From a virus, in the IMG/VR virus record IMGVR_UViG_3300032053_005343, positions 73,012 through 137,011 of that record: a stretch of 64,000 nucleotides of DNA. The stretch is one strand, 5' to 3'. Within the stretch, counting starts at the first letter, position 1, and each line of letters begins with the position of its first letter. The notes beneath the pieces are model-generated. The model was given only the letters and a program-made list of their open reading frames with translations, was not told the DNA's origin and searched no databases. The position numbers and the translations under genes were made by a program. Positions 5,711 through 60,294 of the stretch are shown here, piece after piece.

Positions 5711-6361
5711 TTATATTGTACCATAAATTTTAATAGGAGTTGTTAGTGATTTTTCTATTGACCAATTTAAAGTATGTATTCTAGTATATAATGTTCCATA
5801 ATTAATTTTATATTCTATTGACCAAGCCTTTAAGCATTGAGTTTTACCTTTAAAAGTATAATTGGTATTTGACCGAGTATTCCTTGCTTGAACTTGATTT
5901 GTCGTAAATCTACAGTTTTCTTTATAATACCCCTTATTGTTGTCTATTCTATCTAAAGAAAGACCCGGTGGACATTCGCCCATGTCTTCTAAGAAATTTT
6001 CAAAAGACCCTCCTTTTTTGGGATTCCATCTGTCGCAAACTGTAATTCCTCTTCCATAATAATTCTCATCATTTTTATTTTTGCATCTTCTTATCATATG
6101 ATACCATATGCTGTGTGTTCTTGATTCTTTGCCATTTCTAGCATGACCATGTTTCAAATTACAATCTTTTTTCAAACATCCGCAACTTTGGGTAGGCTTA
6201 GATTTATTTGTCAAATGAAATCCAGCAATAATTTTTTCATTACCACAGTCGCATTTACACAACCACCTTGAATTTCTAAATTTGCCATTGTCTTTTCTTT
6301 CTTTAACGACTAATTTCCCAAATCTTCGTCCAATTAAATCAATAAAGTTATGTGACATCAT
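5711..6361 (-). CDS. HNH-like endonuclease, DLxG-RFGxL/CxCxCG family
   Basis: DLIGRRFGKL, WLCKCDCG, YYGRGITVC, LDRIDNNKGYYKENC. Confidence 0.85.
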   Translation of the reverse strand: MMSHNFIDLIGRRFGKLVVKERKDNGKFRNSRWLCKCDCGNEKIIAGFHLTNKSKPTQSCGCLKKDCNLKHGHARNGKESRTHSIWYHMIRRCKNKNDENYYGRGITVCDRWNPKKGGSFENFLEDMGECPPGLSLDRIDNNKGYYKENCRFTTNQVQARNTRSNTNYTFKGKTQCLKAWSIEYKINYGTLYTRIHTLNWSIEKSLTTPIKIYGTI

Positions 6362-9471: not shown

Positions 9472-10545
9472 TTAGACAACCAATTCTATTGGTTTGGCTC
9501 TTTTAATGTATCTATTGCATCTATAACAAAGAAGTGATAAATTATCTAAATTGAAAAGTTTCAATAATTCTTCTTTTGTTTTTGCTGTTGAGGTTGGAAT
9601 TATGTGATCTACATCATATTTGATTTTATTATAGGATTTATTGCACATTGGACAACAATTATTTTGTGATATTCTTATGCTCTCTAAGTGGTCTTGTAAT
9701 TGTTTGGAATTATAGGGTAAATATTTTGAAAAACCTATTTTATTCTTGTCTTTTGATATCATTTCACTTAAAGAATCTATTAGTTTACGCCCATATTGGC
9801 GGATAAGCAATGATTTTTTATCAAGATTGCTTCTTCTATTATTCGCTTGTTGCTTGGGCGTAGCCCACCTACAATTGTTAGGAGAATAGCCATCTATTAA
9901 TTTATTATTATCTTTTCTATCCAAAGACAACCCAGGAGGACATTCGCCCATGTCTTCTAGAAAATTTTGAAATCCATTATCTTTATCTAACCATCGTTCA
10001 CATATTGTTATTCCTCGTCCTCCATAATCTTTATAGTTTGACATATTTGGATTAGCACATCTTTGTTTCATGCTATCCCAAGCCTTATAGGTTTTTGATC
10101 TTTTCCCAGGCTTATTATGTCCGTGCTTGAAACTTCTTTTAGCTGTTAATTCCTTACTCAAGCATCTACAACTTCTTATAGTTCCGCTTTTAAGATGGTA
10201 GTCTTTGACAATTGTTGTTTCACCACAATCACATAAGCATTCCCACAGAGAATTACCAAGCTTATATCTATTGACACATTTTGTAACGGTCAATCTGTCA
10301 AATTTTTGTCCCGTTAAATCAATAAATCTATTTTTATTTCTTTCTATAGTTTTCACTATAGCAAAACAACCACAACTATTAGTTTTACCTTCTCTTAAGT
10401 TTCCACCGAGAACTATTTTTTCGTTTCCACAATCACATTTACACAACCACATATGTTTACTATTTTTATTTTTGCCCATATATTTTATAGGGGTCAATCT
10501 CCCGAATTTTTTTCCTATCAAATCAATTAATTTTCGTCCTCTCAT
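9472..10545 (-). CDS. Endonuclease: two DLxG modules, a DR-type HNH-like domain and a canonical C-terminal HNH
   Basis: DLIGKKFGRL and DLTGQKFDRL repeats; LDRKDNNK; CPMC..DVDHIIP..NL..LCYRCN. Confidence 0.85.
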   Translation of the reverse strand: MRGRKLIDLIGKKFGRLTPIKYMGKNKNSKHMWLCKCDCGNEKIVLGGNLREGKTNSCGCFAIVKTIERNKNRFIDLTGQKFDRLTVTKCVNRYKLGNSLWECLCDCGETTIVKDYHLKSGTIRSCRCLSKELTAKRSFKHGHNKPGKRSKTYKAWDSMKQRCANPNMSNYKDYGGRGITICERWLDKDNGFQNFLEDMGECPPGLSLDRKDNNKLIDGYSPNNCRWATPKQQANNRRSNLDKKSLLIRQYGRKLIDSLSEMISKDKNKIGFSKYLPYNSKQLQDHLESIRISQNNCCPMCNKSYNKIKYDVDHIIPTSTAKTKEELLKLFNLDNLSLLCYRCNRYIKRAKPIELVV

Positions 10546-13773: not shown

Positions 13774-14727
13774 TTATTTTCTTTTTTTATATTTTCTAAT
13801 CGGAGTTGATAAAGCCCTTTTTAATGACCATCCCGCTTTATTCAGTCTATACTGTAGTGTTTGGGGACTCATCTTATATTCTTGTGCCAAATCTGTAATA
13901 CATTGTTTCTTATTTTTATAATCATAAAATTTATTTCGTAGTTTACAATTTTTGGGGGAATAATTACCATTGTTATTGATTCTATCAAGAGATTTACCCT
14001 TTGGTATTTCGCCAATATCCTCTAAAAAATTTTGAAATCCATTTTTATTATTAGACCATCTTTTACAAACCGCAATCGGAGGATTTCTTCCTCCGTAATA
14101 TTTATAGGCTGGATGATTTTTGTTGGTGCATTTTTGAGCCATTCTTCTCCAGGTGTTATATGTTCTTGATGTTTTATCATTTGTACTATGACCATGCCTT
14201 ATTCTTAATTTGCTTGCCTCGCACGCCATTTCTTTCTGTAAACACCCACAACTTTTAGTGCTACTATCTTTAAGACTTTTCCCGGCAACAATTGTTTCTT
14301 TACCACAATCGCATATACATTCCCATAAATAATTACCTCCCTTGGTTTTACCATTAGGTTTTATTGCAATAAGTTTTCCAAACCTTTGTCCAGTTAAGTC
14401 AATGAAGCTTCCTTTTCCTGGGGCTTGGGGATCAGAAGAAACATTAAAACCTATTTTTCTATTGCAACAATTGGTGGCGTCAATCCACCATTTCTCTCTC
14501 GCGTATAAATCTTTTATGTTATAAATATTTTCAATAATCTCGTATCTAAAGTTTTTCTCTCCATACCTATTCCATGAATTTTGTAAATATAGATTATAAT
14601 GTTTATTTTTACGTAAAAATCTTATGTGATCTTTCAATCTTCTGTCAATATTTACGCTACTTCCTATATAAAATTTATTATTATTTTTACATATAATTTT
14701 ATAAATACCAGATATATTATTCATCAT
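13774..14727 (-). CDS. GIY-YIG endonuclease fused to a DLxG-family HNH-like domain
   Basis: SGIYKI..FYIGSS..R..H..E..N, then FIDLTGQRFGKL..CICDCG..LDRINNNGNY. Confidence 0.88.
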   Translation of the reverse strand: MMNNISGIYKIICKNNNKFYIGSSVNIDRRLKDHIRFLRKNKHYNLYLQNSWNRYGEKNFRYEIIENIYNIKDLYAREKWWIDATNCCNRKIGFNVSSDPQAPGKGSFIDLTGQRFGKLIAIKPNGKTKGGNYLWECICDCGKETIVAGKSLKDSSTKSCGCLQKEMACEASKLRIRHGHSTNDKTSRTYNTWRRMAQKCTNKNHPAYKYYGGRNPPIAVCKRWSNNKNGFQNFLEDIGEIPKGKSLDRINNNGNYSPKNCKLRNKFYDYKNKKQCITDLAQEYKMSPQTLQYRLNKAGWSLKRALSTPIRKYKKRK

Positions 14728-17316: not shown

Positions 17317-17660
17317 TATTTTCTCCTATTAACTTTAAAAATAACGTCGCAGTCAGGACTTAATCCACCACCATGTTGAATATTTTCATCTATTTCGAAT
17401 TTAGTTTGATCATTTGCTGCTCCTGGATAAAATTGTCCTTTGATTGAGATAACCCTATTTATATTTTTACAATTTTCGCAATAAACAGCTATTCTTGTGG
17501 TGATAGGATTTTTATTTTCTCCTACAAGTTCTTCGTTTGTTTTTGTTAATTGAAAAATCATGAGATTTTTTTCGCACTTATTACATTTTGCTACGACAGA
17601 ACCTCTGTCTGCAATACCAAGAGTAATTCTTTTTCCTGGTTCATTTATATTTAATTCCAT
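17316..17660 (-). CDS. Hypothetical Zn-binding protein
   Basis: CNKC, CENC. Confidence 0.6.
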   Translation of the reverse strand: MELNINEPGKRITLGIADRGSVVAKCNKCEKNLMIFQLTKTNEELVGENKNPITTRIAVYCENCKNINRVISIKGQFYPGAANDQTKFEIDENIQHGGGLSPDCDVIFKVNRRK

Positions 17661-18199
17661 TAAATTTCTCCTTTATCTACGGTTATATGTTTCCATATTT
17701 TCTTTCTTTTGATATATGAAATTGTTTGTCTCGTTACATTAAATATGTCGGCGATTTCTTGCTGAATTAAATATCCATCTTCTATTAATCTTATAATTAT
17801 TCTAACTTTCCAGTCATTTAATTTTGCTAACCCCTGCTTAGAACCCTTAATAAAAGTCCCGTGTTTAATTGAATCTTTAGCATTATTTTTATGTGTATCC
17901 CATCTCAAATTTCCAACATAGTTATTTGAGGGTTTTCCATCATTGTGGCATCCTTCCATCCCTGGTGGGCAAGGACCAACAAATGCTTCAAGAACCAATC
18001 TATGTATAGAATAATTTTTTCTTATATTATTTTTATACAAACTTACTTGCAAATGTCCATATTTATTGATTTTTAAAGATTTTAAAATTTTAAATGGTTT
18101 ATGATTTTTATTTCTATTGAATCGTTTTATTCCTCCGTAATTTGATACTTGATATAATCCTTCATAATCTTTAATATCTTTCCAAATTTCCTCGGTCAT
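17660..18199 (-). CDS. NUMOD4-HNH homing endonuclease
   Basis: EIWKDIKDYEGLYQVSN; GCHNDGKPSNNYVGNLRW; C-terminal HTH ending WKHI. Confidence 0.9.
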   Translation of the reverse strand: MTEEIWKDIKDYEGLYQVSNYGGIKRFNRNKNHKPFKILKSLKINKYGHLQVSLYKNNIRKNYSIHRLVLEAFVGPCPPGMEGCHNDGKPSNNYVGNLRWDTHKNNAKDSIKHGTFIKGSKQGLAKLNDWKVRIIIRLIEDGYLIQQEIADIFNVTRQTISYIKRKKIWKHITVDKGEI

Positions 18200-20171: not shown

Positions 20172-21091
20172 TATCTTTCAGCCCCAGGGCAGATTCTCTT
20201 AAAATTGCAATAAATACATTTATTGAGATTCTCGGTCATTTCAAATAATTCTCTATCTTCCCTATTCTTATGGGCCTTCGCCAATAGAGGATATTCTCTT
20301 TTAATAATATCAATTTGATTTTTAATCTGCAATTTATTAATCTCAATTGTAGGAAATGCTGCCACGGGATCGTCCTCAAAATAGGCTAGAAACGCCGGAA
20401 TAATTACTATATCTTCTAACTTTTCTACCCATTTCATTTTTAGGGCATACATCGAATAAACAGTCATCTGTTCAACAATGTCATTGTTCGGCTTACCTGT
20501 TTTGAAATCTACGAGAATCAGCTTTCCATTATCCTTAAACGCGCAGTCTAATTTGACACTAATTTCTTCTCCTGTTATCATTTTAAATTTTTGAAATTCC
20601 TCGACAGTTATCCATTGATTTTTTTCTAGTGAACTCATAGTTTTAAACAGGTCACACTTGTAAAAAGCTTCTATGCATTTTAATGCTTTTATTTTATAGC
20701 TACTCAACTTTTGCTTGTCGGGCATTCTGTCATAATACATTTCGAAGAAGTTTACCTTTTTGGCACTAGTTTTCCATTCTTGATTTTTTGATTCCACCCA
20801 TCCCTTCCGCAACAAATTAACAACTTTATCTTTAGAATCATTTAAAGATATCCATTTTCCGGTTGACCTAAAAGTTTTAATCGCATACTCTATTGTTTCA
20901 TGTACAATCGAACCGACATACATCGGAAAATTAGTCAAGTTCTTTAATAGATATGCTTCTTTTTGTTCTTTTGTGGCATTCTTCATCCAGCCCCCCCAAG
21001 AGGCAAAGTAATTATACCAGTATTTGCGAGCACATTCCCGGAGAGTTTTAATCCTACTGGCCGACCAAGAAAAATTTAATTCTAAAGACAT
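20171..21091 (-). CDS. PD-(D/E)XK RecB/Cas4-like nuclease
   Basis: SWSASR..ECARKY, GSIVH, KLD, LVDFKTG, CIYCNFKRIC. Confidence 0.85.
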   Translation of the reverse strand: MSLELNFSWSASRIKTLRECARKYWYNYFASWGGWMKNATKEQKEAYLLKNLTNFPMYVGSIVHETIEYAIKTFRSTGKWISLNDSKDKVVNLLRKGWVESKNQEWKTSAKKVNFFEMYYDRMPDKQKLSSYKIKALKCIEAFYKCDLFKTMSSLEKNQWITVEEFQKFKMITGEEISVKLDCAFKDNGKLILVDFKTGKPNNDIVEQMTVYSMYALKMKWVEKLEDIVIIPAFLAYFEDDPVAAFPTIEINKLQIKNQIDIIKREYPLLAKAHKNREDRELFEMTENLNKCIYCNFKRICPGAER

Positions 21092-21633
21092 CTTATTCCA
21101 TTCTTTATTCTTGATATAGTAGCCTGAACAACATTAAATATTTCGGAGATTTCTTTTTGGGTTAAATAATCGTCCTCTATTAATCTTGTAATAACCCTAA
21201 ATTGTGATTCGTTTAATTTTGAACTATGATGTTTTGATCCTTTTGGAGGAGTGGGAAAGATAGAATAATGGGTGCCATGCTTAATAGAATCTTGGGCATT
21301 TTCTGATTTTGTTCCCCATTTTAAATTTTCTAATCTATTATTTTGGGGATTACCATCAAGATGTCTACACTCCATTCCGGGTGGACATGGACCTACAAAA
21401 GCTATTAAAACTAATCTGTGAATATAGAATGTTTTTATTTCATTGTTTTTACATAGGGCGACACCAATATGACCCATTGCGTCACAGCGACGTTGTTTTA
21501 AAATCTTTTGTTTTTCATATTTTAAACTTTTAATTCTCCCCAAATCAGAAACTTCATATAATCCTTCATAATTAATAATAGGCTTCCAAATCTCTTTTGC
21601 TGTTTCTGTAATTTTAGCCATTAATAAATCCAA
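21082..21633 (-). CDS. NUMOD4-HNH homing endonuclease
   Basis: EIWKPIINYEGLYEVSDLGR; CRHLDGNPQNNRLENLKW. Confidence 0.9.
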   Translation of the reverse strand: MDLLMAKITETAKEIWKPIINYEGLYEVSDLGRIKSLKYEKQKILKQRRCDAMGHIGVALCKNNEIKTFYIHRLVLIAFVGPCPPGMECRHLDGNPQNNRLENLKWGTKSENAQDSIKHGTHYSIFPTPPKGSKHHSSKLNESQFRVITRLIEDDYLTQKEISEIFNVVQATISRIKNGIRCL

Positions 21634-21821
21634 ACCTCAACATAATCACAACATGGTTCTTCGATATAATATATTGGAGATGGAACATATACTGTATCTG
21701 TCACAAAATCTATATCACAACCGCTGATTAAAACTAAAAAACCAATTCCTAACAATAATTTTTTCATTTTATTCCTTCCAAAATATATAAACATTTTTAC
21801 CATCCCTCTTTGCGAGATCAA
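21621..21821 (-). CDS. Small putative lipoprotein (likely start MKKLLLG)
   Basis: Signal peptide with LISGC lipobox. Confidence 0.5.
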   Translation of the reverse strand: MISQRGMVKMFIYFGRNKMKKLLLGIGFLVLISGCDIDFVTDTVYVPSPIYYIEEPCCDYVEVWIY

Positions 21822-22143
21822 TACTATTTTTCGTTCCCTTTGATTCTCCGTTCCAAAAAGCTATGATGGCGTCTGATTGATTTATTATTAATTTGTTTCT
21901 TTTAAATCCGGCGCTTTTTCCGTACTGATTCCAATCTGGTAAAATTTCTGTTATAGGAATATTTTTTTCTTCTGCGTATCTTCTTGCGAGACTGTCTGCG
22001 CCTTTCGCGCCTCCACTTACAATTTCAGAAAAAGAAAAACTATCAAGAATTTCTTTCATAAATTCATAGTTAACAAAAGTTCGTGAACCTATTACACCAA
22101 CTTTATTAAAATCTTTTATCACCATAAATTCTATATTATTCAT
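21769..22143 (-). CDS. DUF2493/YspA-like SLOG-family protein
   Basis: VIGSRTF, IVSGGAKGAD, AGFKRN, AFWNGESKGT. Confidence 0.85.
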   Translation of the reverse strand: MNNIEFMVIKDFNKVGVIGSRTFVNYEFMKEILDSFSFSEIVSGGAKGADSLARRYAEEKNIPITEILPDWNQYGKSAGFKRNKLIINQSDAIIAFWNGESKGTKNSIDLAKRDGKNVYIFWKE

Positions 22144-22868
22144 TTTTCATCCATTGTTATTAATGCGTCGTCAATTATTTGATTATTATCTATTGTTCCC
22201 GAAGAAAAATGGAGAATGTATGGCTTGTAAATTTTAACTCTATGTAACCATTCTTTTACATATCCAACCCCACCGTTGCAGGGATGTGAATTATAAATAT
22301 TACCGTTCAATAATTTAATTTTATAGATATCGTTATGGTTTTTATATAGATTTGTAATTAATTCCGATAATGCTCGTTGGTCCCTAGACGGAGCATTGTG
22401 TAAACTTTTTTGTCTTTCCACCCACTGGTTTATAAAATCTTTTATTTGATCACAATTTTTAAGTGCTACGAATCCCGCGCTTATATTATTTGTTCTATAT
22501 TTTTCCTTGACTTCTGGATAAATTGTAACAAAAATATTTGCATTTTCTTTGAACAAATTATTAAGATCCTTCACAATTAAGCAATCAATATCTAAAAGAA
22601 GAATATTTTCAAATTTATTATTATTAATAAAATATTTTAATGATTCAGCCTTTCTTGCGCAATTTATACCAAAACATGTCGAATCATCATCAAATATTTC
22701 AATAAATTTTACTTTATTTAAATTTTTATACTTGTTAAGATCAGATTGATCTATTTCGTTTGTGTAGATAAAAATATTTTCTACGGAAGATTGGTCGTTC
22801 CAATTTTTAAGTGTTTTTTCTAGTTTTGAAAAATAACTTGCTGAGCAAAAACTAATTATGTCAAACAT
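22140..22868 (-). CDS. Nucleotide-diphospho-sugar transferase (GT-A)
   Basis: LLLDIDC DxD motif, ISAGF, DQRAL, ILHF. Confidence 0.75.
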   Translation of the reverse strand: MFDIISFCSASYFSKLEKTLKNWNDQSSVENIFIYTNEIDQSDLNKYKNLNKVKFIEIFDDDSTCFGINCARKAESLKYFINNNKFENILLLDIDCLIVKDLNNLFKENANIFVTIYPEVKEKYRTNNISAGFVALKNCDQIKDFINQWVERQKSLHNAPSRDQRALSELITNLYKNHNDIYKIKLLNGNIYNSHPCNGGVGYVKEWLHRVKIYKPYILHFSSGTIDNNQIIDDALITMDEK

Positions 22869-22869
22869 T

Positions 22870-23898
22870 TTATTCTGGTTCTAGTCCATTGTGTTTTAGA
22901 AAATTTTCAAAACCTTTACCCTTTGGCTCTTTCCAGTCGCAGTCGGTGGCTAACCCGATCCCTTTCCCTCCATAGTCTTTGTATTCGGCGTGGTCTGGAT
23001 CTTCATATCTTCCGAGAGTGTCTTCGTAAGCCTTATAAGTTTTAATCATTCTTTTTTCAAAAGTTCCATTTGCTTTAGCTTCCTCTATATCTTCTTCTAT
23101 GGTTGATCTCCACTCTAATGGATATCCCAATTTAACACCATGTTTACCTAATTTTTTAACGTCTTCTTCTGTAGCTCTGCGAGTGACTATACTGTTTCTC
23201 CCCATATATCTGTCGTTATGAATAAGATCGTACTCATCTATCTCCTCTTCCTCTTCTATTTCTGAATCATTTTCTTCGTTTTCACAACAACATTCATCCA
23301 AAGCCCCATTCGCTTCTGCCTCGGCAACCTCTTCTTCAGTTGCTTTTCGAAGAACTGTCAAATTACCAAATTTTTGGCCTGTTAAATCTTCTTCTGGTTC
23401 CTCTTCTTCGTCGTCTCCTGTTAATATTCTTTTTGCTCCACTATAGATACCTTCTGCAAGAACAGTAATTCCAAGAGCAATTGTAAAATTTTGATCATCG
23501 TCATATACTTGTTTAAGGGCATCATTATTAAACGAATCGGCAATAGCAATGGCGGAACATGTTTGAAAAATGAAAACTATACTCTCTAAAATTTCGGCAC
23601 TAAAAAATTTATCTTTAACATATTCTTCAACAAGTTCGCCAAGTGCTTCAAAAGAATTATCGGATTTTATATCTTCTTTCTTATCTTTCTTAAATTCTTC
23701 TGCCATTTCAAGTATTGCTTCTACTACTTCTTGTTCTTTGTGGCAAAGAAATTTATTAGTTATAATATCACACTTAAGTTTTACAAGCTGTAATGAATTT
23801 GCAACATTCTTTAATTCTTCTTTTGTGTCAATAGCAATAGTTTCTACTCCATCTTTGTTTGTTATTTTTGTTTTCTTTGTTAAATTTTTCTTTTTCAT
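22870..23898 (-). CDS. Acidic protein containing degenerate DLxG-family endonuclease segments
   Basis: EDLTGQKFGNLTVL and KTYKAY..R..P.H..YKDYGGKGI...W.EPKGKGFENFL within E/D-rich sequence. Confidence 0.75.
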   Translation of the reverse strand: MKKKNLTKKTKITNKDGVETIAIDTKEELKNVANSLQLVKLKCDIITNKFLCHKEQEVVEAILEMAEEFKKDKKEDIKSDNSFEALGELVEEYVKDKFFSAEILESIVFIFQTCSAIAIADSFNNDALKQVYDDDQNFTIALGITVLAEGIYSGAKRILTGDDEEEEPEEDLTGQKFGNLTVLRKATEEEVAEAEANGALDECCCENEENDSEIEEEEEIDEYDLIHNDRYMGRNSIVTRRATEEDVKKLGKHGVKLGYPLEWRSTIEEDIEEAKANGTFEKRMIKTYKAYEDTLGRYEDPDHAEYKDYGGKGIGLATDCDWKEPKGKGFENFLKHNGLEPE

Positions 23899-23981
23899 TT
23901 ATTTTCCTTTATTATGCATTTAAATATTTCCACAATGGATTTGTATTTTTAATTGGAAGTTGTATATTTTTGTACATCTCA

Positions 23982-24041
23982 TCATATTACAACTTCTAGT
24001 TTTCCAAACACTTGTCCGGTTAAATCAATAAGTTTGCGCAT
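23982..24041 (-). pseudogene. Remnant 5' end of a DLxG-family endonuclease
   Basis: MRKLIDLTGQVFGKLEVVI then TGA. Confidence 0.7.
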
Positions 24042-24045
24042 AATT

Positions 24046-25233
24046 TTAATCCACAAAAATAGGAGCTTCTACGGTTTTGCCCCATATCGGATGTACCAAA
24101 AAGAATGATTGTTGGGGCTTTTCAAACGCGGCCTTTATACTAAGACTATAAGGCCCATACCCAATTATTGATCCATTTACTATAAAATTCTTGCTTGACA
24201 ATCTTTGGTGCCAATGCCCAAAGACATCTAGATCAGCATATTTACCCTGGTTCCATTGGGCTATTGCCTTATTAATGGGGATACTAATACCCCCCACGCC
24301 ACCAGAGTATCTTATGAAGTTTCCGTGATGAAATCTTACGGTATAGTCATATATATCTAAATAATTAAAATATCCTCTAGATAGTTTAAACTTAATTATA
24401 TCTGATTTTTCGTAGTGGCTTGACAAGAAATTGTATATTAGCCATTCGTAATTGTTTTCCACGCAGGTGGATATTCTAATTTTTTCTGTAGTACGAGAGT
24501 GGTTGCCTACGCTTGTTACTATTACTATCTCGTTGAAATCTCCGGCTTCTATCAGAAAATCTATTGCTGAAACACATAGTTTATAAACATCTATACTTGC
24601 CTCTATTGGACTCATGGCGTTGTTTTCCACAAGCTCCTCATGAATATAACCCGATATCAAGTCTCCCCCTAGCCACAAGACAAGTTTTTTAATATTTGAT
24701 TTACTTCTGCACATTTCTATTAATTTTAATCCATTCTGAAACACTTTATGGAATCTCTCTTTTGCTATTGTTATATTATATTCATTTAAACCGTCTACCG
24801 TTCTAGGATCAACGGTTTCTTCATAGTGTAAATCGGAGCATAAAATAATAGCTGTTGATTCGGAGGGCTTTCCTTCAGAAACTATTTTAATTTTTTCGTG
24901 TTGAATTAAATCTATATTTTTACTAAACAATTCTATTGTATTAATTTGTCCAGACTGGTCCTCAAAAAGTTTTAGAAGTTCTTCGTATTTTTTCTGAAGA
25001 TCTCTTTTTTCTTTGACAACTGTTTTCAACTTAGAATCAAGACCAATTTCTTGTTCCGGAGAGAGCATGGGGGTTCCAGAAACATATCCTTTATCCAGTG
25101 CCTTGTTGTATCTTCCTGACAAAGTTTTTCTAGGTATTTTCAAAACTTTTGCCGCTGCCGCAATAGAACCATATTTCTTTACTGAATCTACAGCTTCTTG
25201 GAGATTTTTTCTTTCATCATTCACTAAATTCAC
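24046..25233 (-). CDS. HTH/coiled-coil + calcineurin-like metallophosphoesterase
   Basis: GSIAAAAKVLKIPRKT HTH; SDLH, GD, GNH, HHG, GHWH. Confidence 0.82.
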   Translation of the reverse strand: MNLVNDERKNLQEAVDSVKKYGSIAAAAKVLKIPRKTLSGRYNKALDKGYVSGTPMLSPEQEIGLDSKLKTVVKEKRDLQKKYEELLKLFEDQSGQINTIELFSKNIDLIQHEKIKIVSEGKPSESTAIILCSDLHYEETVDPRTVDGLNEYNITIAKERFHKVFQNGLKLIEMCRSKSNIKKLVLWLGGDLISGYIHEELVENNAMSPIEASIDVYKLCVSAIDFLIEAGDFNEIVIVTSVGNHSRTTEKIRISTCVENNYEWLIYNFLSSHYEKSDIIKFKLSRGYFNYLDIYDYTVRFHHGNFIRYSGGVGGISIPINKAIAQWNQGKYADLDVFGHWHQRLSSKNFIVNGSIIGYGPYSLSIKAAFEKPQQSFFLVHPIWGKTVEAPIFVD

Positions 25234-25237
25234 ACCC

Positions 25238-28200
25238 TTATTCTAATGAGCATTTCCCATTAAGACAACTATTGTCAGTAGATTCTACCTTTGTTGTTAT
25301 TTCTTTTAAATATTTTTCTGCTTCTTTTGTTGGAAGGGGCATTAGTGGACTTTCGCCCTTGCTTCCATCTCGGAAAATACTTATTCCTTTGAGATCATAC
25401 ATATACTTTTTAATTAAATTTGATAATTGATTTTTTGTTGTATCTTTGGGCAAATTTATAGTTTTCGAGATGGCTCCGTCTATATGTTTCTGGCATATTG
25501 ATTGTATTTTACAGTGTTGCTCTGGGGATATTTCGTGAGCACCCTCAAAATGAGAATAATCTTTTCCCTTTTCTATAAATTCTTTTAATAGTGGATGAAT
25601 AACAATTTCTGTTGATTTATTTGTAAGTTTTGAATGAATATCTTTATGTTTATTAAAATTCCTGCGATAAACCGGAGAGAATAAAGGCTCTATACCAGAA
25701 CTACAACCAGCCACTATACTTGTTGTCCCAGTTGGTTGTATAGATAATATCGCGCAATTTCTAATCCCATAAGATAATATTTTTTTTCTTGTAGATATAG
25801 TCAAACATTCTTTACAAAATCCACTTTCTAAGAATTTTTTCCTATCAAGAAGGGGGAATGATCCCTTTTCCACCCCCAAAAAAACACTTGCTTCATAAGC
25901 TTTCTTTTTTATAAAGAGCATAATTTTATCTGTTATTTTCAATGCCTCTTCTGAACTATATTTTATTCCCATTTTAAGGAACATATCATGTAAGCCTAAA
26001 ATTCCAAGCCCAATTCTTCTGTGATTTTGACATGTTTTTTTAATTATTTCGAGGGGATATTCATTTTTGTCTAAAACATTATCTAGAAATCTTACTCCCA
26101 TACGAATTGTATCATCTAATAAGTCCCAATTTATTTCATCGTTACTTGTTACATGGACAGATAAATTTATTGATCCCAGTGTACATGCATCATATACCGG
26201 CAACCATTGTTCACCACAAGGGTTAGTGGATGACATAGGAGCAACCCACCATATATTGTTATATTTATCTGCATTACCTATAGATAAAATTCCAGGATCC
26301 CCGCACGACAAAGAATTTTCTATTATCTTGTCGTATAACCATTTTGCTTTAACAGTTTTTATTTCTTTTCCTGCCCATTCCAATATTATATCTTTATCTT
26401 TTTCTACTAAGTCTAAAAATTTATCGTCTATTAATACGCTAATATTAGCATTATTTAATTCCTTCTCGTCTAATTTGACACGTAAAAATTCTTCAATATC
26501 TCCATGATCGTATCTTAAACAAAACATTAGCGCGGAATTATGTACCAATAATCCCTCGGATATAAATTTCGCATCATGTTCAATCTGGATATCATATGTT
26601 TCTTCTTTTTCATTTTGTCTTGTTATGCTTAAAACTTTAATAGGAAGAAAATCTCTGTCTCCTTCTGTCAAAATAAATTTTTTCCAACTACACTCCATTT
26701 TTGCTTTTTCCGAATTCTTAAGATCTGTCCAATACGCAGGACTAAAATTCCCTCTGTTATTATATTCTCGTAACATTTTTCTTGGTACTGTTAATGAAAA
26801 TTGTTCCTTTTTTCTTTCTTGGATGCCATCTCTGGCATATTTTAAAGAATATGGAGATATATCATTTTTAATTTTTTCTATTCCAAAATAAGAAAATGCT
26901 GCAACAGAATACATGTCTTTCCATTCTCCTGTGGCTTCCCTATCAAGTCTAGTTTTAGAGACTATACCAAGAGAAGAAAGAACGGCTCTTATTTGTCTTA
27001 AAAAATCTGGATAGACGGATGATGCTATTTTGGGCAAAGTTTTCTTTTTTGTTTTTCCAAGATATCCATCTGCATCTAATAACCCCGCCAAGTATGCCTT
27101 TCTAATTTCTGGCAATCCTTGTAAAATAAAATCAGGCACGTTCATTGTTTGGTGGGGTAATTTAAATTGAGATAAGTATTCTGCAAGTTGTTTTGAACAA
27201 ACACGAGGCTTACTACATTTTTCTTTCGTTTGAAAGTAATCATTTATATGTAAATTATCCCCGAATCTTTTTATATTTTTAACAATTCTATTGTGTATTT
27301 CAGGAATATCATATGGACAAGAAAATGAAACAGTGCCCTTGTTTCCTTCGTTTAAGATTTCTACACATCCATTCCCATGCAAATATCCAAAAAGCCATGC
27401 AATTTCTGTATCCAGGGTCGGTATTGTAATATCCTTGCATGTTGTGGACATTTTTGGTTTAATATAATTATATTCGGGCAATTTTGTTTTATGCCCTTGT
27501 ATTTCTTCTGGAATAAATAAAATTCTGTCCCCATAAATTAAATCTTTGGCAAGCTTCCATTCTACTTTACCAGTTAAATTTTTTAGAGTAGCCCATCTAT
27601 GATTTAAAGAAGATTTAAATATACCCATTTGTGTATCAATTAAAACTATTTCTTGATTTCCGGTGCGTTCAGATGCAATAACTTTATCGTATTTGTTTAA
27701 TCCCGTTTGTACAATATCTCCAATTTTAATATTTTCAATTTTGATTAGTCCGTTATAAGTATGTATTAGCGATCCCTTTGGGAGACATCTTCTCCCGCCG
27801 CCTTCTCTTAATTCATTACATATACCATCTACCATTTTCATCAAACTTACAGCCCCAGTAGCGGTTCCACCACTGCCTTTTATTGGTGTTCCTCTTGGTC
27901 TTACTGAGCTAAAATTGCATCCAACGCCACCACCAAGACTTGTAATTACTGTTATATCATATAGTAATTGTGCCCATTCTTCTCTACTGTCACCACATTT
28001 TACTACGAAACAATTAAGCATAGCAGATTTTTTTCGTCCTGCCCCACGGAATATTCTTCCGCCAGGAACTAATCTATTCTGACTCAATATTTCATAGAAT
28101 TTTTTTTCAAATTCTTTTATTTTTTCTCCATCTTCTGCACTTGCCATAAAGTTAGCTACACGACGACACGCTTCCTGGAATCCCTCGTCTTGACTTATCG

Positions 28201-28267
28201 CATAACGATCTTTAAATATCTGAAGAGCGAATCCTGAAGGTTCGTAAATTGGGAGAGTATTTTCCAC
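25238..28267 (-). CDS. nrdJ: Ribonucleotide reductase, probably class II (B12-dependent), with intein
   Basis: PGGRI, LNCFV, GGGVG, TNPCGEQ, CTLGSINL, RRIGLG, QPTGTTS, ISKTIN, C-terminal CxxxxC; no nrdB in window. Confidence 0.88.
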   Translation of the reverse strand: MENTLPIYEPSGFALQIFKDRYAISQDEGFQEACRRVANFMASAEDGEKIKEFEKKFYEILSQNRLVPGGRIFRGAGRKKSAMLNCFVVKCGDSREEWAQLLYDITVITSLGGGVGCNFSSVRPRGTPIKGSGGTATGAVSLMKMVDGICNELREGGGRRCLPKGSLIHTYNGLIKIENIKIGDIVQTGLNKYDKVIASERTGNQEIVLIDTQMGIFKSSLNHRWATLKNLTGKVEWKLAKDLIYGDRILFIPEEIQGHKTKLPEYNYIKPKMSTTCKDITIPTLDTEIAWLFGYLHGNGCVEILNEGNKGTVSFSCPYDIPEIHNRIVKNIKRFGDNLHINDYFQTKEKCSKPRVCSKQLAEYLSQFKLPHQTMNVPDFILQGLPEIRKAYLAGLLDADGYLGKTKKKTLPKIASSVYPDFLRQIRAVLSSLGIVSKTRLDREATGEWKDMYSVAAFSYFGIEKIKNDISPYSLKYARDGIQERKKEQFSLTVPRKMLREYNNRGNFSPAYWTDLKNSEKAKMECSWKKFILTEGDRDFLPIKVLSITRQNEKEETYDIQIEHDAKFISEGLLVHNSALMFCLRYDHGDIEEFLRVKLDEKELNNANISVLIDDKFLDLVEKDKDIILEWAGKEIKTVKAKWLYDKIIENSLSCGDPGILSIGNADKYNNIWWVAPMSSTNPCGEQWLPVYDACTLGSINLSVHVTSNDEINWDLLDDTIRMGVRFLDNVLDKNEYPLEIIKKTCQNHRRIGLGILGLHDMFLKMGIKYSSEEALKITDKIMLFIKKKAYEASVFLGVEKGSFPLLDRKKFLESGFCKECLTISTRKKILSYGIRNCAILSIQPTGTTSIVAGCSSGIEPLFSPVYRRNFNKHKDIHSKLTNKSTEIVIHPLLKEFIEKGKDYSHFEGAHEISPEQHCKIQSICQKHIDGAISKTINLPKDTTKNQLSNLIKKYMYDLKGISIFRDGSKGESPLMPLPTKEAEKYLKEITTKVESTDNSCLNGKCSLE
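26537..27787 (-). mobile_element. Intein with LAGLIDADG endonuclease in RNR (417 aa)
   Basis: GGGRR|CLPKGS ... LLVHN|SAL; blocks WLFGYLHGNG and YLAGLLDADG. Confidence 0.93.
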
Positions 28268-58891: not shown

Positions 58892-59648
58892 GCACTATTT
58901 CCTTTTCTTTTGTTTTTAAAACAAATTTTAATTGATTTATTGCATATGGGATAAAATATGCTTTTATTAGCTTTTCCAGAGATTTAAAGATATTGTTTTT
59001 CGCATTTAAATATGTATTATAATTTTTAATTCCGCCAAATTTCAACATATCAGAGATTAATTGATCCATATTTAAACTTATACCATAATTGCAAGAATAA
59101 AGATATATTGATTTTAAATCTTTTGAAGAAAATTTTAAAAGTTGTATTAAATTATTTATTGCATTATTTGCAGGAGATTTATATAAAATATCATTAATTT
59201 TACGATCAGCTATTTGGTTTATCATTTGATTTAAAAGTAAAGCCAATCGCTTAAATATTATAGATTTTTCACTTATTTTTATTGTTGGTTTACCATTTTT
59301 ATCTATTAAAACTCTTTCATAATATAAAGACAATATCTTTTCTTTTTTATCAACTATCCAAAACCAGCCATCTATTTGTTTTAATTTTACGGGACTATAT
59401 TTTTCCATTCGTGATTTTGTTAGATTTGTTAATTGTCCATTTGTAGATAATCTGAATAATCCGTTTGGCAGTATGGTAATTATTGGTGTAGAATATAAAT
59501 TAATTATAAAAGATTTATTGACTTTTTCTAAGGTCACATTTTTTTCTAGAGGAACCGTATTTTTTTCTAGTTGGTCCTCTTGGGTTATTGGGAATTCTTT
59601 TCCTTTGCTCTTTTTTGTAAATAGCTCATTTGCTTCTTGGTAATTCAT
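58866..59648 (-). CDS. Hypothetical phage protein
   Basis: 260 aa ORF; L.TNG..T..TKSRM motif. Confidence 0.6.
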   Translation of the reverse strand: MNYQEANELFTKKSKGKEFPITQEDQLEKNTVPLEKNVTLEKVNKSFIINLYSTPIITILPNGLFRLSTNGQLTNLTKSRMEKYSPVKLKQIDGWFWIVDKKEKILSLYYERVLIDKNGKPTIKISEKSIIFKRLALLLNQMINQIADRKINDILYKSPANNAINNLIQLLKFSSKDLKSIYLYSCNYGISLNMDQLISDMLKFGGIKNYNTYLNAKNNIFKSLEKLIKAYFIPYAINQLKFVLKTKEKEIVRARQTSAV

Positions 59649-60294
59649 TTTTAGTTCTCCAATTATGGCGGGTGTCTGGTGGAATTGTTAGGGCTTCTTC
59701 GGGAGTCCAACCGGCGGCTAATCTGCGTCTAATAGTAGCCTTATGGATTCCGGTTATTTCTGATGCTTCTGCTATACAGATTTCCTTTCCTTTGTATGGT
59801 ATTAAATGATTTGATCTTCTGTTTCTTGCTTGTTCTTTTCTCGTAGATAGTCTACAATTTTTCGGAGAATACCCGTTTTTTAATTTATTGTTATTTATTC
59901 TGTCTAGTTCATATCCTTTAGGAATTTCCCCAATATCCTCTAAGAAATTTTTGAATCCTCGCCCATCTGGTTCTGTCCATCTTGAACAAATTGTAATACC
60001 TCGACCACCATAATTTTTATATGATTTATGAAGAGGGTTTTCACATCTTTGTTTCATACTATCCCATGCACTAAATGTTTTTGAGGATATTTTATATTTA
60101 GTATGCCCATGTTTAAAACGTAAACATCCACAGCTTTTAGTTTTATTGGTTTGTAGACTATTGCCACTAATTATCTTTTGTTTTCCACAATCACATAAAC
60201 ACAACCATTGTGAGCGATTATATTTATTGTTTTCTAGTCGTTTGATAACTATTAAATTTCCAAATCTTTCACCAATTAGATTTAATACTTTCAT
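59626..60294 (-). CDS. DLxG-family HNH-like endonuclease
   Basis: NLIGERFGNL, CLCDCG, LDRINNNK..GYSPKNC. Confidence 0.85.
   Translation of the reverse strand: MKVLNLIGERFGNLIVIKRLENNKYNRSQWLCLCDCGKQKIISGNSLQTNKTKSCGCLRFKHGHTKYKISSKTFSAWDSMKQRCENPLHKSYKNYGGRGITICSRWTEPDGRGFKNFLEDIGEIPKGYELDRINNNKLKNGYSPKNCRLSTRKEQARNRRSNHLIPYKGKEICIAEASEITGIHKATIRRRLAAGWTPEEALTIPPDTRHNWRTKNELPRSK

Follow-up and report, generated by a model that had tools for sequence, protein, structure and literature searches.

The common view of homing-endonuclease genes is that of selfish insertions, either active or decaying. In T7 gp2.5, T4 gp32 and HMGB1, acidic C-terminal tails compete with nucleic acid for basic surfaces, and the heads carrying these tails are OB-fold or HMG DNA binders. 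PMC1865063 describes the shortened I-TevIII gene of phage T4, a truncated phage homing-endonuclease gene, and PMC10448857 describes Odn of phage ICP1, a homing-endonuclease relative that has recombined with a foreign DNA-binding domain. Ocr and ArdA are acidic DNA-mimic proteins of mobile elements (PMC2731889). This work concerns a minus-strand gene in a 64,000-nucleotide stretch of viral DNA, hereafter called the window, which covers positions 73,012 to 137,011 of the 137-kb IMG/VR virus record IMGVR_UViG_3300032053_005343 (completeness estimate 82%). The product of this gene, P0001, combines a helical N-terminal domain with an acidic fragment of an HNH-like homing-endonuclease family that is itself abundant in the window, and the gene is probably a chimeric phage accessory gene that has been kept by selection.

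The open reading frame (ORF) 22870..23898(-) translates into 342 amino acids (aa) plus stop. With 82 Asp and Glu residues to 47 Lys and Arg residues, the product has a net charge of -35 and a pI of 4.57, the lowest among the 78 Met-start minus-strand ORFs of at least 100 aa in the window. Each of the 11 endonuclease-family members of the window has a pI of 9.65-10.16. A first-pass annotation of the stretch, made by a model from the sequence alone, had described this 342-aa E/D-rich protein as a nuclease-less, charge-reversed paralog of 11 related proteins; both the exceptional acidity and the count of 11 are borne out.

Residues 171-342 of P0001 are homologous to the front half of this 11-member family. 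Over their full length they align with residues 76-204 of 9472..10545, and the last 57 residues match the product of 59626..60294 with 23/49 identities (BLASTP, E = 1e-13). Comparison with a profile of the endonuclease family in hhalign, a hidden Markov model alignment of the kind proposed in the first-pass annotation, gave 99.3% probability and an E-value of 9e-21 over residues 284-342. Residues 166-335 also fall on positions 191-314 of the 617 positions of phrog_374 ('HNH endonuclease', E = 3.3e-8), a profile on which complete family members span positions 190 to ~400. The family start motif DLxGxxFGxLxV is present as EDLTGQKFGNLTVL at residues 169-183. At the opposite end, a multiple alignment pairs the C-terminus ...NGLEPE with the family ...MGECP-P, just ahead of GLSLDRIDNN. 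The stop of P0001 lies one residue past the aligned MGxxP, and the DRIDNN...NCRW beta-beta-alpha (HNH_3-like) motif is missing, as are the C-terminal helix-turn-helix (HTH)-like region and the basic charge of the endonuclease family. The start motif, the C-terminal parallel to 59626..60294 and the stop just before the LDRIDN segment had all been read correctly from the sequence.

In the alignment, the endonuclease-derived half is preceded by an acidic linker, GDDEEEEPEE (codons 161-170, 23389..23418(-)). It opens with unit 1, DLTGQKFGNLTVLRKATEEEVAEAEANG (codons 171-198, 23305..23388(-)), in which the endonuclease-family start motif is followed by an acidic helix; this unit is 89-92% identical among P0001 and two other fused proteins, P0003 and P0004. 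Codons 199-229 (23212..23304(-)) encode what is left of the zinc knuckle, the degenerate ECCCE, together with a poly-Glu/Asp tract that is hypervariable. Two aligned Cys (C203 and C205) are left of the five invariant family Cys in the zinc knuckles CxCxCG...SCGC; the SCGC knuckle is lost and Glu/Asp tracts stand in its place, in agreement with the earlier description of a zinc-finger region replaced by acidic tracts. Units 2 and 3 (RRATEEDV... and RSTIEEDI..., codons 230-285, 23044..23211(-)) are internal duplicates of unit 1 and are restricted to the P0001 and P0003 clusters. The ATEEEV/ATEEDV/TIEEDI repeats that had been pointed out before are one unit in three copies (residues 171-198, 230-254 and 254-285), with alignment scores that were matched in none of 2000 shuffles; at the DNA level the copies are 71% alike over 41 nucleotides (nt) and 80% over 25 nt. 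The C-terminal module, KTYKAYEDTLGRY...GFENFLKHNGLEPE (codons 286-342, 22873..23043(-)), is homologous to the segment preceding DRIDNN. It keeps the pattern KTYxxWxxMxxRC...YGGRGIxVCxRW...FxNFLxDMG, but with changes at family-invariant positions (C to Y, R to K, R to D and D to H), and its net charge is -1 to -5 in the four fused forms versus -4 to +9 (mean +4.4) in 24 canonical sequences.

Because three features that define the endonuclease family were tested and none was found in the protein, P0001 is a derived fragment of this family and functionally no member of it. Having lost the positive charge of its endonuclease relatives along with their zinc knuckles, DRIDNN motif and HTH, P0001 is very unlikely to bind or cut DNA.

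The remaining codons, 1-160 (23419..23898(-)), comprise a basic leader (residues 1-26, net +5) and a six-helix N-domain, as delimited by alignment and AlphaFold2 (AF2). A phmmer search with residues 1-165 over 1.84 billion representatives returned seven matches (E = 2.6e-89 to 1.7e-5), with P0004 (311 aa), P0006 (267 aa), P0007 (168 aa), P0009 (169 aa), P0010 (222 aa) and P0011 (141 aa) as relatives; the seventh, a tandem-repeat protein of 1066 aa with matches over 15 short stretches, was set aside as spurious. Two further relatives, P0012 (171 aa) and P0013 (152 aa), came from a profile search. Six of these proteins (P0007, P0009, P0010, P0011, P0012 and P0013; 141-222 aa) consist of the N-domain as a stand-alone protein. 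In a 10-sequence alignment of the family (~135 aa), residues L51, F111, D121, G143, G150, G154 and L159 are invariant. The domain is followed by a tail with a net charge of -6 in P0007, -9 in P0009 and -8 in P0010 and by a tail that is acidic by eye in P0012, while P0011 and P0013 end right after the domain without a tail. P0001 carries GDDEEEEPEE at this same position, after L159. As four stand-alone relatives are already acidic-tailed, its acidity is at least partly inherited from the N-domain family. Judged by these sequence comparisons, the N-domain is an older, independent and rare helical protein family. The description of the N-terminal ~160 aa as unrelated helical sequence was thus right in that the region is helical and foreign to the endonucleases, and it fell short in missing that the region is an older family of its own. 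Of the term charge-reversed paralog, what holds is that the C-terminal half is family-derived, lacks the nuclease and has a shifted module charge; the protein as a whole is no such paralog but a fusion with partly inherited acidity.

AF2 predicts the N-domain alone (10-sequence alignment) as a compact six-helix bundle with a mean pLDDT of 81 and a pTM of 0.77. The model of whole P0001 is poor (mean pLDDT 49.9), with values of 33-43 over residues ~200-270 and 64-75 over residues 271-342; the acidic region of residues ~200-270 is predicted to be disordered and the terminal module is predicted with moderate confidence. Searches for known relatives of the N-domain gave little. Pfam and NCBIfam returned nothing above threshold for P0001 or the N-domain, and a match to RE_NgoPII was dismissed as chance (E = 0.0016-0.005, 16-18 bits versus a cut-off of 25, over 43 helix residues). 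No significant PHROGs family was found for the N-domain of P0001; phrog_30016, of unknown function, matches 2 of the 10 members of the N-domain family (3.7e-5). The ESM Atlas held no usable match for residues 1-165, and Foldseek with the N-domain against PDB and BFVD gave nothing at E ≤ 0.001. A wide VIA-align search with the N-domain reached a best Z of 7.1 (Cmr5 chains, Lpg2149 and chaperonin equatorial domains); the Cmr5 rows, which invite comparison with the Cas11/Cmr5 small-subunit fold, had Z 7.1 (rmsd 4.4, 124 aligned) and Z 7.0 (rmsd 3.5, 100 aligned), in a range (Z below about 13) that according to the tool is common among unrelated helical bundles. With the poor whole-protein model, VIA-align found generic helical hairpins only. 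No relatives of P0007, P0009 and P0011 were found by tblastn against 50,697 phage records, scans of IMG/VR with P0007, P0009 and P0010 gave zero relatives, and a scan with P0006 gave ordinary endonuclease genes only (10 loci).

The fusion is found in four 90%-identity clusters, namely P0001 (3 variants), P0003 (5 variants), P0004 and P0006. All 10 distinct fused protein variants, spread over 16 contigs, share the same aligned stop at P-E or P-D, opposite the family MGxxP, and the C-terminal module is retained in all four clusters. Lys replaces the family-invariant Arg of GGRG in P0001, P0003, P0004 and P0006 (4/4). The shared stop position and the shared Lys in GGRG point to a single capture followed by descent in one subclade. 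In P0001, P0003 and P0004 the acidic linker passes directly into DLTGQKF, the endonuclease's own first residues. Since the linker meets the endonuclease start in this way, the simplest origin of the fusion would be a read-through by which the upstream gene was joined to an endonuclease gene abutting it; abutting or overlapping starts are the rule for genes of this region.

After the capture, the fused proteins diverged. P0006 is without the start-motif unit, which is triplicated in P0001 and P0003. The Glu/Asp run past the degenerate knuckle varies in length between variants, and in the variant seen in runs X12 and X13 a 66-nt block (23257..23322) is swapped for 15 other nt. All length differences among the variants are in frame, and in 10 of 10 variants the frame stays open for 89-182 codons beyond the N-domain, in a genome of about 31% G+C. 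In the P0003 cluster, linker types and acidic-tract types are combined in a mosaic fashion. P0004 and P0006 share 82% identity in the module and 58% in the N-core.

Of four runs examined for variants of the gene, X12 and X13 alone gave long variant pieces; runs X9 and X16 held short identical pieces or low-likeness fragments only. The X12/X13 allele differs from the window ORF at 22 listed single-letter positions that amount to 20 changed codons, 15 synonymous and 5 non-synonymous. This corresponds to a pN/pS of about 0.08 (binomial P versus neutrality 1.4e-7), an estimate valid for the well-aligned parts of this one allele pair. The N-domain contributes 6 synonymous to 2 non-synonymous changes (P = 0.0011) and codons 216-342 contribute 7 to 3 (P = 6.7e-4). 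Given this synonymous excess, neutral decay is not seen, and both halves are under purifying selection. The first-pass annotation had named a lack of conserved homologs together with neutral decay as the mark of a chance chimera; homologs exist and most codon changes are silent.

The history that best accounts for these observations begins with the older part, residues ~27-160, which would be a compact six-helix domain of a rare family of small phage proteins, mostly with short acidic tails. In one subclade, the frame would have been extended past the acidic tail so as to take in the 5' half of a free-standing HNH-like homing-endonuclease gene next to it. The captured piece would start at DLTGQKF, and the rest of that gene, with the DRIDNN beta-beta-alpha motif and all that follows it up to and including the C-terminal HTH, would have been lost. 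Remodelling may then have removed the zinc ligands, inserted Glu/Asp tracts and triplicated the start unit of strand plus helix, while the last 57-residue module was kept and turned acidic. As to function, we tentatively propose an accessory factor that binds protein or mimics DNA, acting as a polyanionic competitor or adaptor built from head, tether and cap. Its helical head would supply specificity, the long, putatively disordered acidic tether would compete electrostatically with nucleic acid on a DNA-binding partner of the phage or host, and the small folded endonuclease-derived cap would stabilise the tail or make a second contact.

Several observations weigh against this account. No fold or family was found to match the N-domain significantly, which makes the specificity of the head a guess, and the two hydrophobic helices of this domain (residues 101-121, Kyte-Doolittle 1.64, and 137-158) would also suit a membrane hairpin. 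Between P0001 and P0004 the module is 56% identical and the N-core 91%, the reverse of the P0004/P0006 pair, which would mean either fast module evolution in the P0001/P0003 line or recombination between alleles. The pN/pS value uses 22 of up to 39 differences; up to 17 lie unlisted near the ends of contig pieces, that is, in the hypervariable tract and the variable N-terminus, where it is perhaps too low. The allele of L001, a related phage contig, differs from the window ORF at 3 of 1029 nt (2 non-synonymous) and is uninformative on selection.

The divergence between the P0001 and P0004 modules would be expected if the fusion were a read-through accident, with the N-domain as the only part that counts and the endonuclease part as junk that is tolerated while it drifts into harmless acidity. 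The middle tract is indeed hypervariable, rich in insertions and deletions and predicted to be disordered, and the zinc ligands and several family-invariant residues are gone. However, drift fits poorly with a frame that is open well past the N-domain in every variant and ends at the identical stop residue, with the synonymous excess in codons 216-342, with a P0004/P0006 module that is better conserved than the N-core, or with a unit 1 as conserved as the N-core; we regard a purely passive tail as decidedly improbable. The hydrophobic helices could instead form a membrane hairpin that places the acidic tail and the module at the inner face, in a role such as exclusion or injection control. Their 19-residue Kyte-Doolittle means (1.64 and 1.15) and the GxxxxxxGxxxG pattern, invariant across the N-domain family, would agree with this. 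Yet AF2 places both helices in one compact bundle, the first carries a conserved polar or acidic residue (Q/D/E) at its mid-position, the second has a conserved Glu and a Lys-Arg pair, and a signal peptide is absent, so that an anchoring role has very little probability.

The first-pass annotation had suggested a decoy or dominant-negative inhibitor of the related endonucleases. Under such a reading, P0001 would be a specific antagonist of resident or incoming HNH-like endonucleases, an 'anti-homing' factor in which the disarmed front half and a DNA-like polyanion on a helical anchor neutralise the homing endonucleases of the family. The near-invariant start motif of unit 1, the retained pre-DRIDNN module and the complementary charge (-35 versus +20 to +40) are in line with this, as are the presence of at least 13 family members in the genome and the location of the acidic gene directly downstream of a family endonuclease gene in L001 and of the scar of that gene in the window. 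Against it, the N-domain has six relatives without any endonuclease fragment, and because these exist the core function predates the capture. Moreover, P0006 has lost the start-motif unit entirely, there is no sign that the family enzymes are oligomeric or that the fragment has a binding surface, and such a neighbour occurs at only one of the at least 13 family genes. A predicted complex of P0001 with family member 5711..6361 scored 0.00, a result of 'no answer' that speaks neither for nor against binding. Dedicated antagonism therefore seems unlikely to us, and the anti-homing role is about equally doubtful; if true, it would offer self-protection against the resident enzymes or block marker exclusion by co-infecting phages. 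The selected chimera, with a possible role as polyanionic competitor or adaptor, is the reading that we retain.

Immediately upstream of the acidic gene lies a second trace of the endonuclease family. Outside the acidic ORF, at 23982..24041(-), 19 codons (MRKLIDLTGQVFGKLEVVI) and a stop remain from the head of a free-standing endonuclease gene that has been deleted, and a tail out of frame with this head, identified by its match to L001, occupies 23912..23987(-). The 76 nt of 23987..23912 equal the last 25 codons and stop of L001:5235..5987 with no mismatch, and at this same position L001 carries that gene as an intact 250-aa family member (phrog_374, E = 2e-66). The window therefore has an L001-type 3' tail behind a different 5' head, the two being out of frame with each other, and 23912..24041 is the deletion scar of a separate endonuclease gene, since an intact gene sits at the same place in L001. 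The 19-codon remnant that had been listed upstream is thus real, but it derives from a separately deleted gene that is intact in L001. A low-depth contig (2.9) of run X12 links 23912 to 24137, skipping 224 nt, a hint that the scar region has yet another allele.

The scar also coincides with a change in relatedness. Window positions ~22400..23987 and L001:5912..7499 differ at 10 of 1588 positions, a block that takes in the endonuclease tail, the acidic ORF and two thirds of the gene that follows. Beyond it, divergence is 22-35 per 100 nt downstream, and the upstream side is unalignable. Because near-identity stops there, a recombination boundary lies inside the endonuclease gene, in its 3' tail. 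A like pattern of recombination boundaries at phage nuclease genes is described in PMC10448857. On the upstream side, the exonuclease-like genes 24046..25233 and L001:4091..5242 are of similar length and both start with an HTH-like segment; they give no blastn alignment, and at this locus one gene may have been replaced by a very divergent or non-orthologous one. The ribonucleotide reductase genes 25238..28267 and L001:1149..4076 each carry an apparent intein-like insertion, by eye at different sites.

The resident endonuclease family, designated 'DLxGxxFGxL' after its start motif, has 11 members in the window and at least two more in the whole 137-kb record. A PDB sequence search with its profile yielded 0 matches even at E ≤ 10, and Pfam HNH_3 matched below threshold only, in 1 of 7 members scanned. 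In a weak hhalign alignment, the family (e.g. 5711..6361 and 59626..60294) has an invariant Arg, that of DRIDNN, where the NUMOD4/HNH_3 protein 17660..18199 has its catalytic His. An additional true nuclease domain is present in two members, GIY-YIG in 13774..14727 and PF01844 HNH in 9472..10545. The family core may be a DNA-binding scaffold and not an active nuclease. P0005 (302 aa) is an ordinary member of the family, with a C-terminus that, we presume, resembles an AP2-type domain.

The gene is situated in a block of replication and nucleotide-metabolism genes that is dense in homing-endonuclease-like genes. The window has a G+C content of about 31%, and nearly all its genes are on the minus strand. 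A Shine-Dalgarno-like sequence read from the DNA, AAAGGAAAA (23902..23910(-)), lies 4-12 nt 5' of the ATG. The upstream neighbour is a Mre11/SbcD-like exonuclease (phrog_284, E = 6e-38); the next gene downstream starts 2 nt past the stop and is glycosyltransferase-like (nucleotide-sugar-transferase-like), followed further downstream by a gene for a SLOG/DprA-like protein. A frameshift or read-through that would restore the nuclease was rejected on the grounds of this glycosyltransferase-like gene beginning 2 nt after the stop. An assembly chimera was likewise rejected: the protein or close variants occur on 16 contigs, and the DNA is present in runs of 15 studies. A scan for promoters and terminators found 17 sites, no better than shuffles (mean 18.1), and none of the 21 runs listed is an RNA dataset carrying the sequence. 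Among the 50,697 phage records, tblastn with P0001 gave one weak match to the module only and megablast with 21000..26000 gave zero matches. The family of P0001 is so far found in metagenomes only, mostly from sediment according to the run records.

In P0001, a non-catalytic piece of an endonuclease appears to have been absorbed by a neighbouring gene, changed from basic to acidic, duplicated and selected in the phage lineage, a natural case of how coding sequence of a selfish element can feed new phage proteins. The analysis also defines a new rare family of helical proteins with acidic tails, and the scar together with the near-identical block shared with L001 provides a clean example of endonuclease genes at recombination boundaries. 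Should P0001 turn out to target endonucleases or other DNA-binding proteins, it would represent an inhibitor of a new type. In the literature covered, which leaves out most subscription journals, no endonuclease-derived acidic fusion like this one and no protein inhibitor of phage homing endonucleases was found.

The acidic DNA mimics Ocr and ArdA, like the acidic-tailed replication proteins, resemble P0001 in composition and architecture only. Ocr and ArdA are small, very acidic and largely helical and have no enzymatic motif. Neither chain is among the fold matches listed, and no sequence or fold match links them to P0001, much of whose charge lies in a tract predicted to be disordered instead of on a rigid DNA-shaped surface. 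T7 gp2.5, T4 gp32 and HMGB1 share the arrangement of a folded head with a polyanionic tail, and the gene for P0001 likewise lies among replication and recombination genes; its head, however, is an unrelated helical bundle and its tail is capped by an endonuclease-derived module. The closest relatives by descent are the free-standing HNH-like homing-endonuclease genes of the phrog_374 and phrog_3377 type, whose start motif, part order and pre-DRIDNN module recur in P0001. P0001 differs from them in lacking DRIDNN and the HTH, in keeping two of five Cys, in its pI of 4.57 and in the 165-aa foreign domain in front. The shortened I-TevIII gene of T4 and the scar at 23912..24041 resemble it in that the catalytic part of an HNH-type gene has been lost; these are remnants on their way out, whereas the fragment in P0001 has been fused, is conserved in 10 variants and is under purifying selection. 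With Odn, P0001 has in common that domains were shuffled between the gene of a selfish endonuclease and another gene and that the product was kept for the benefit of the phage. Odn keeps its nuclease and gains a DNA-binding domain, whereas P0001 has lost the nuclease part and the DNA-binding part and keeps the acidic, non-catalytic front half.

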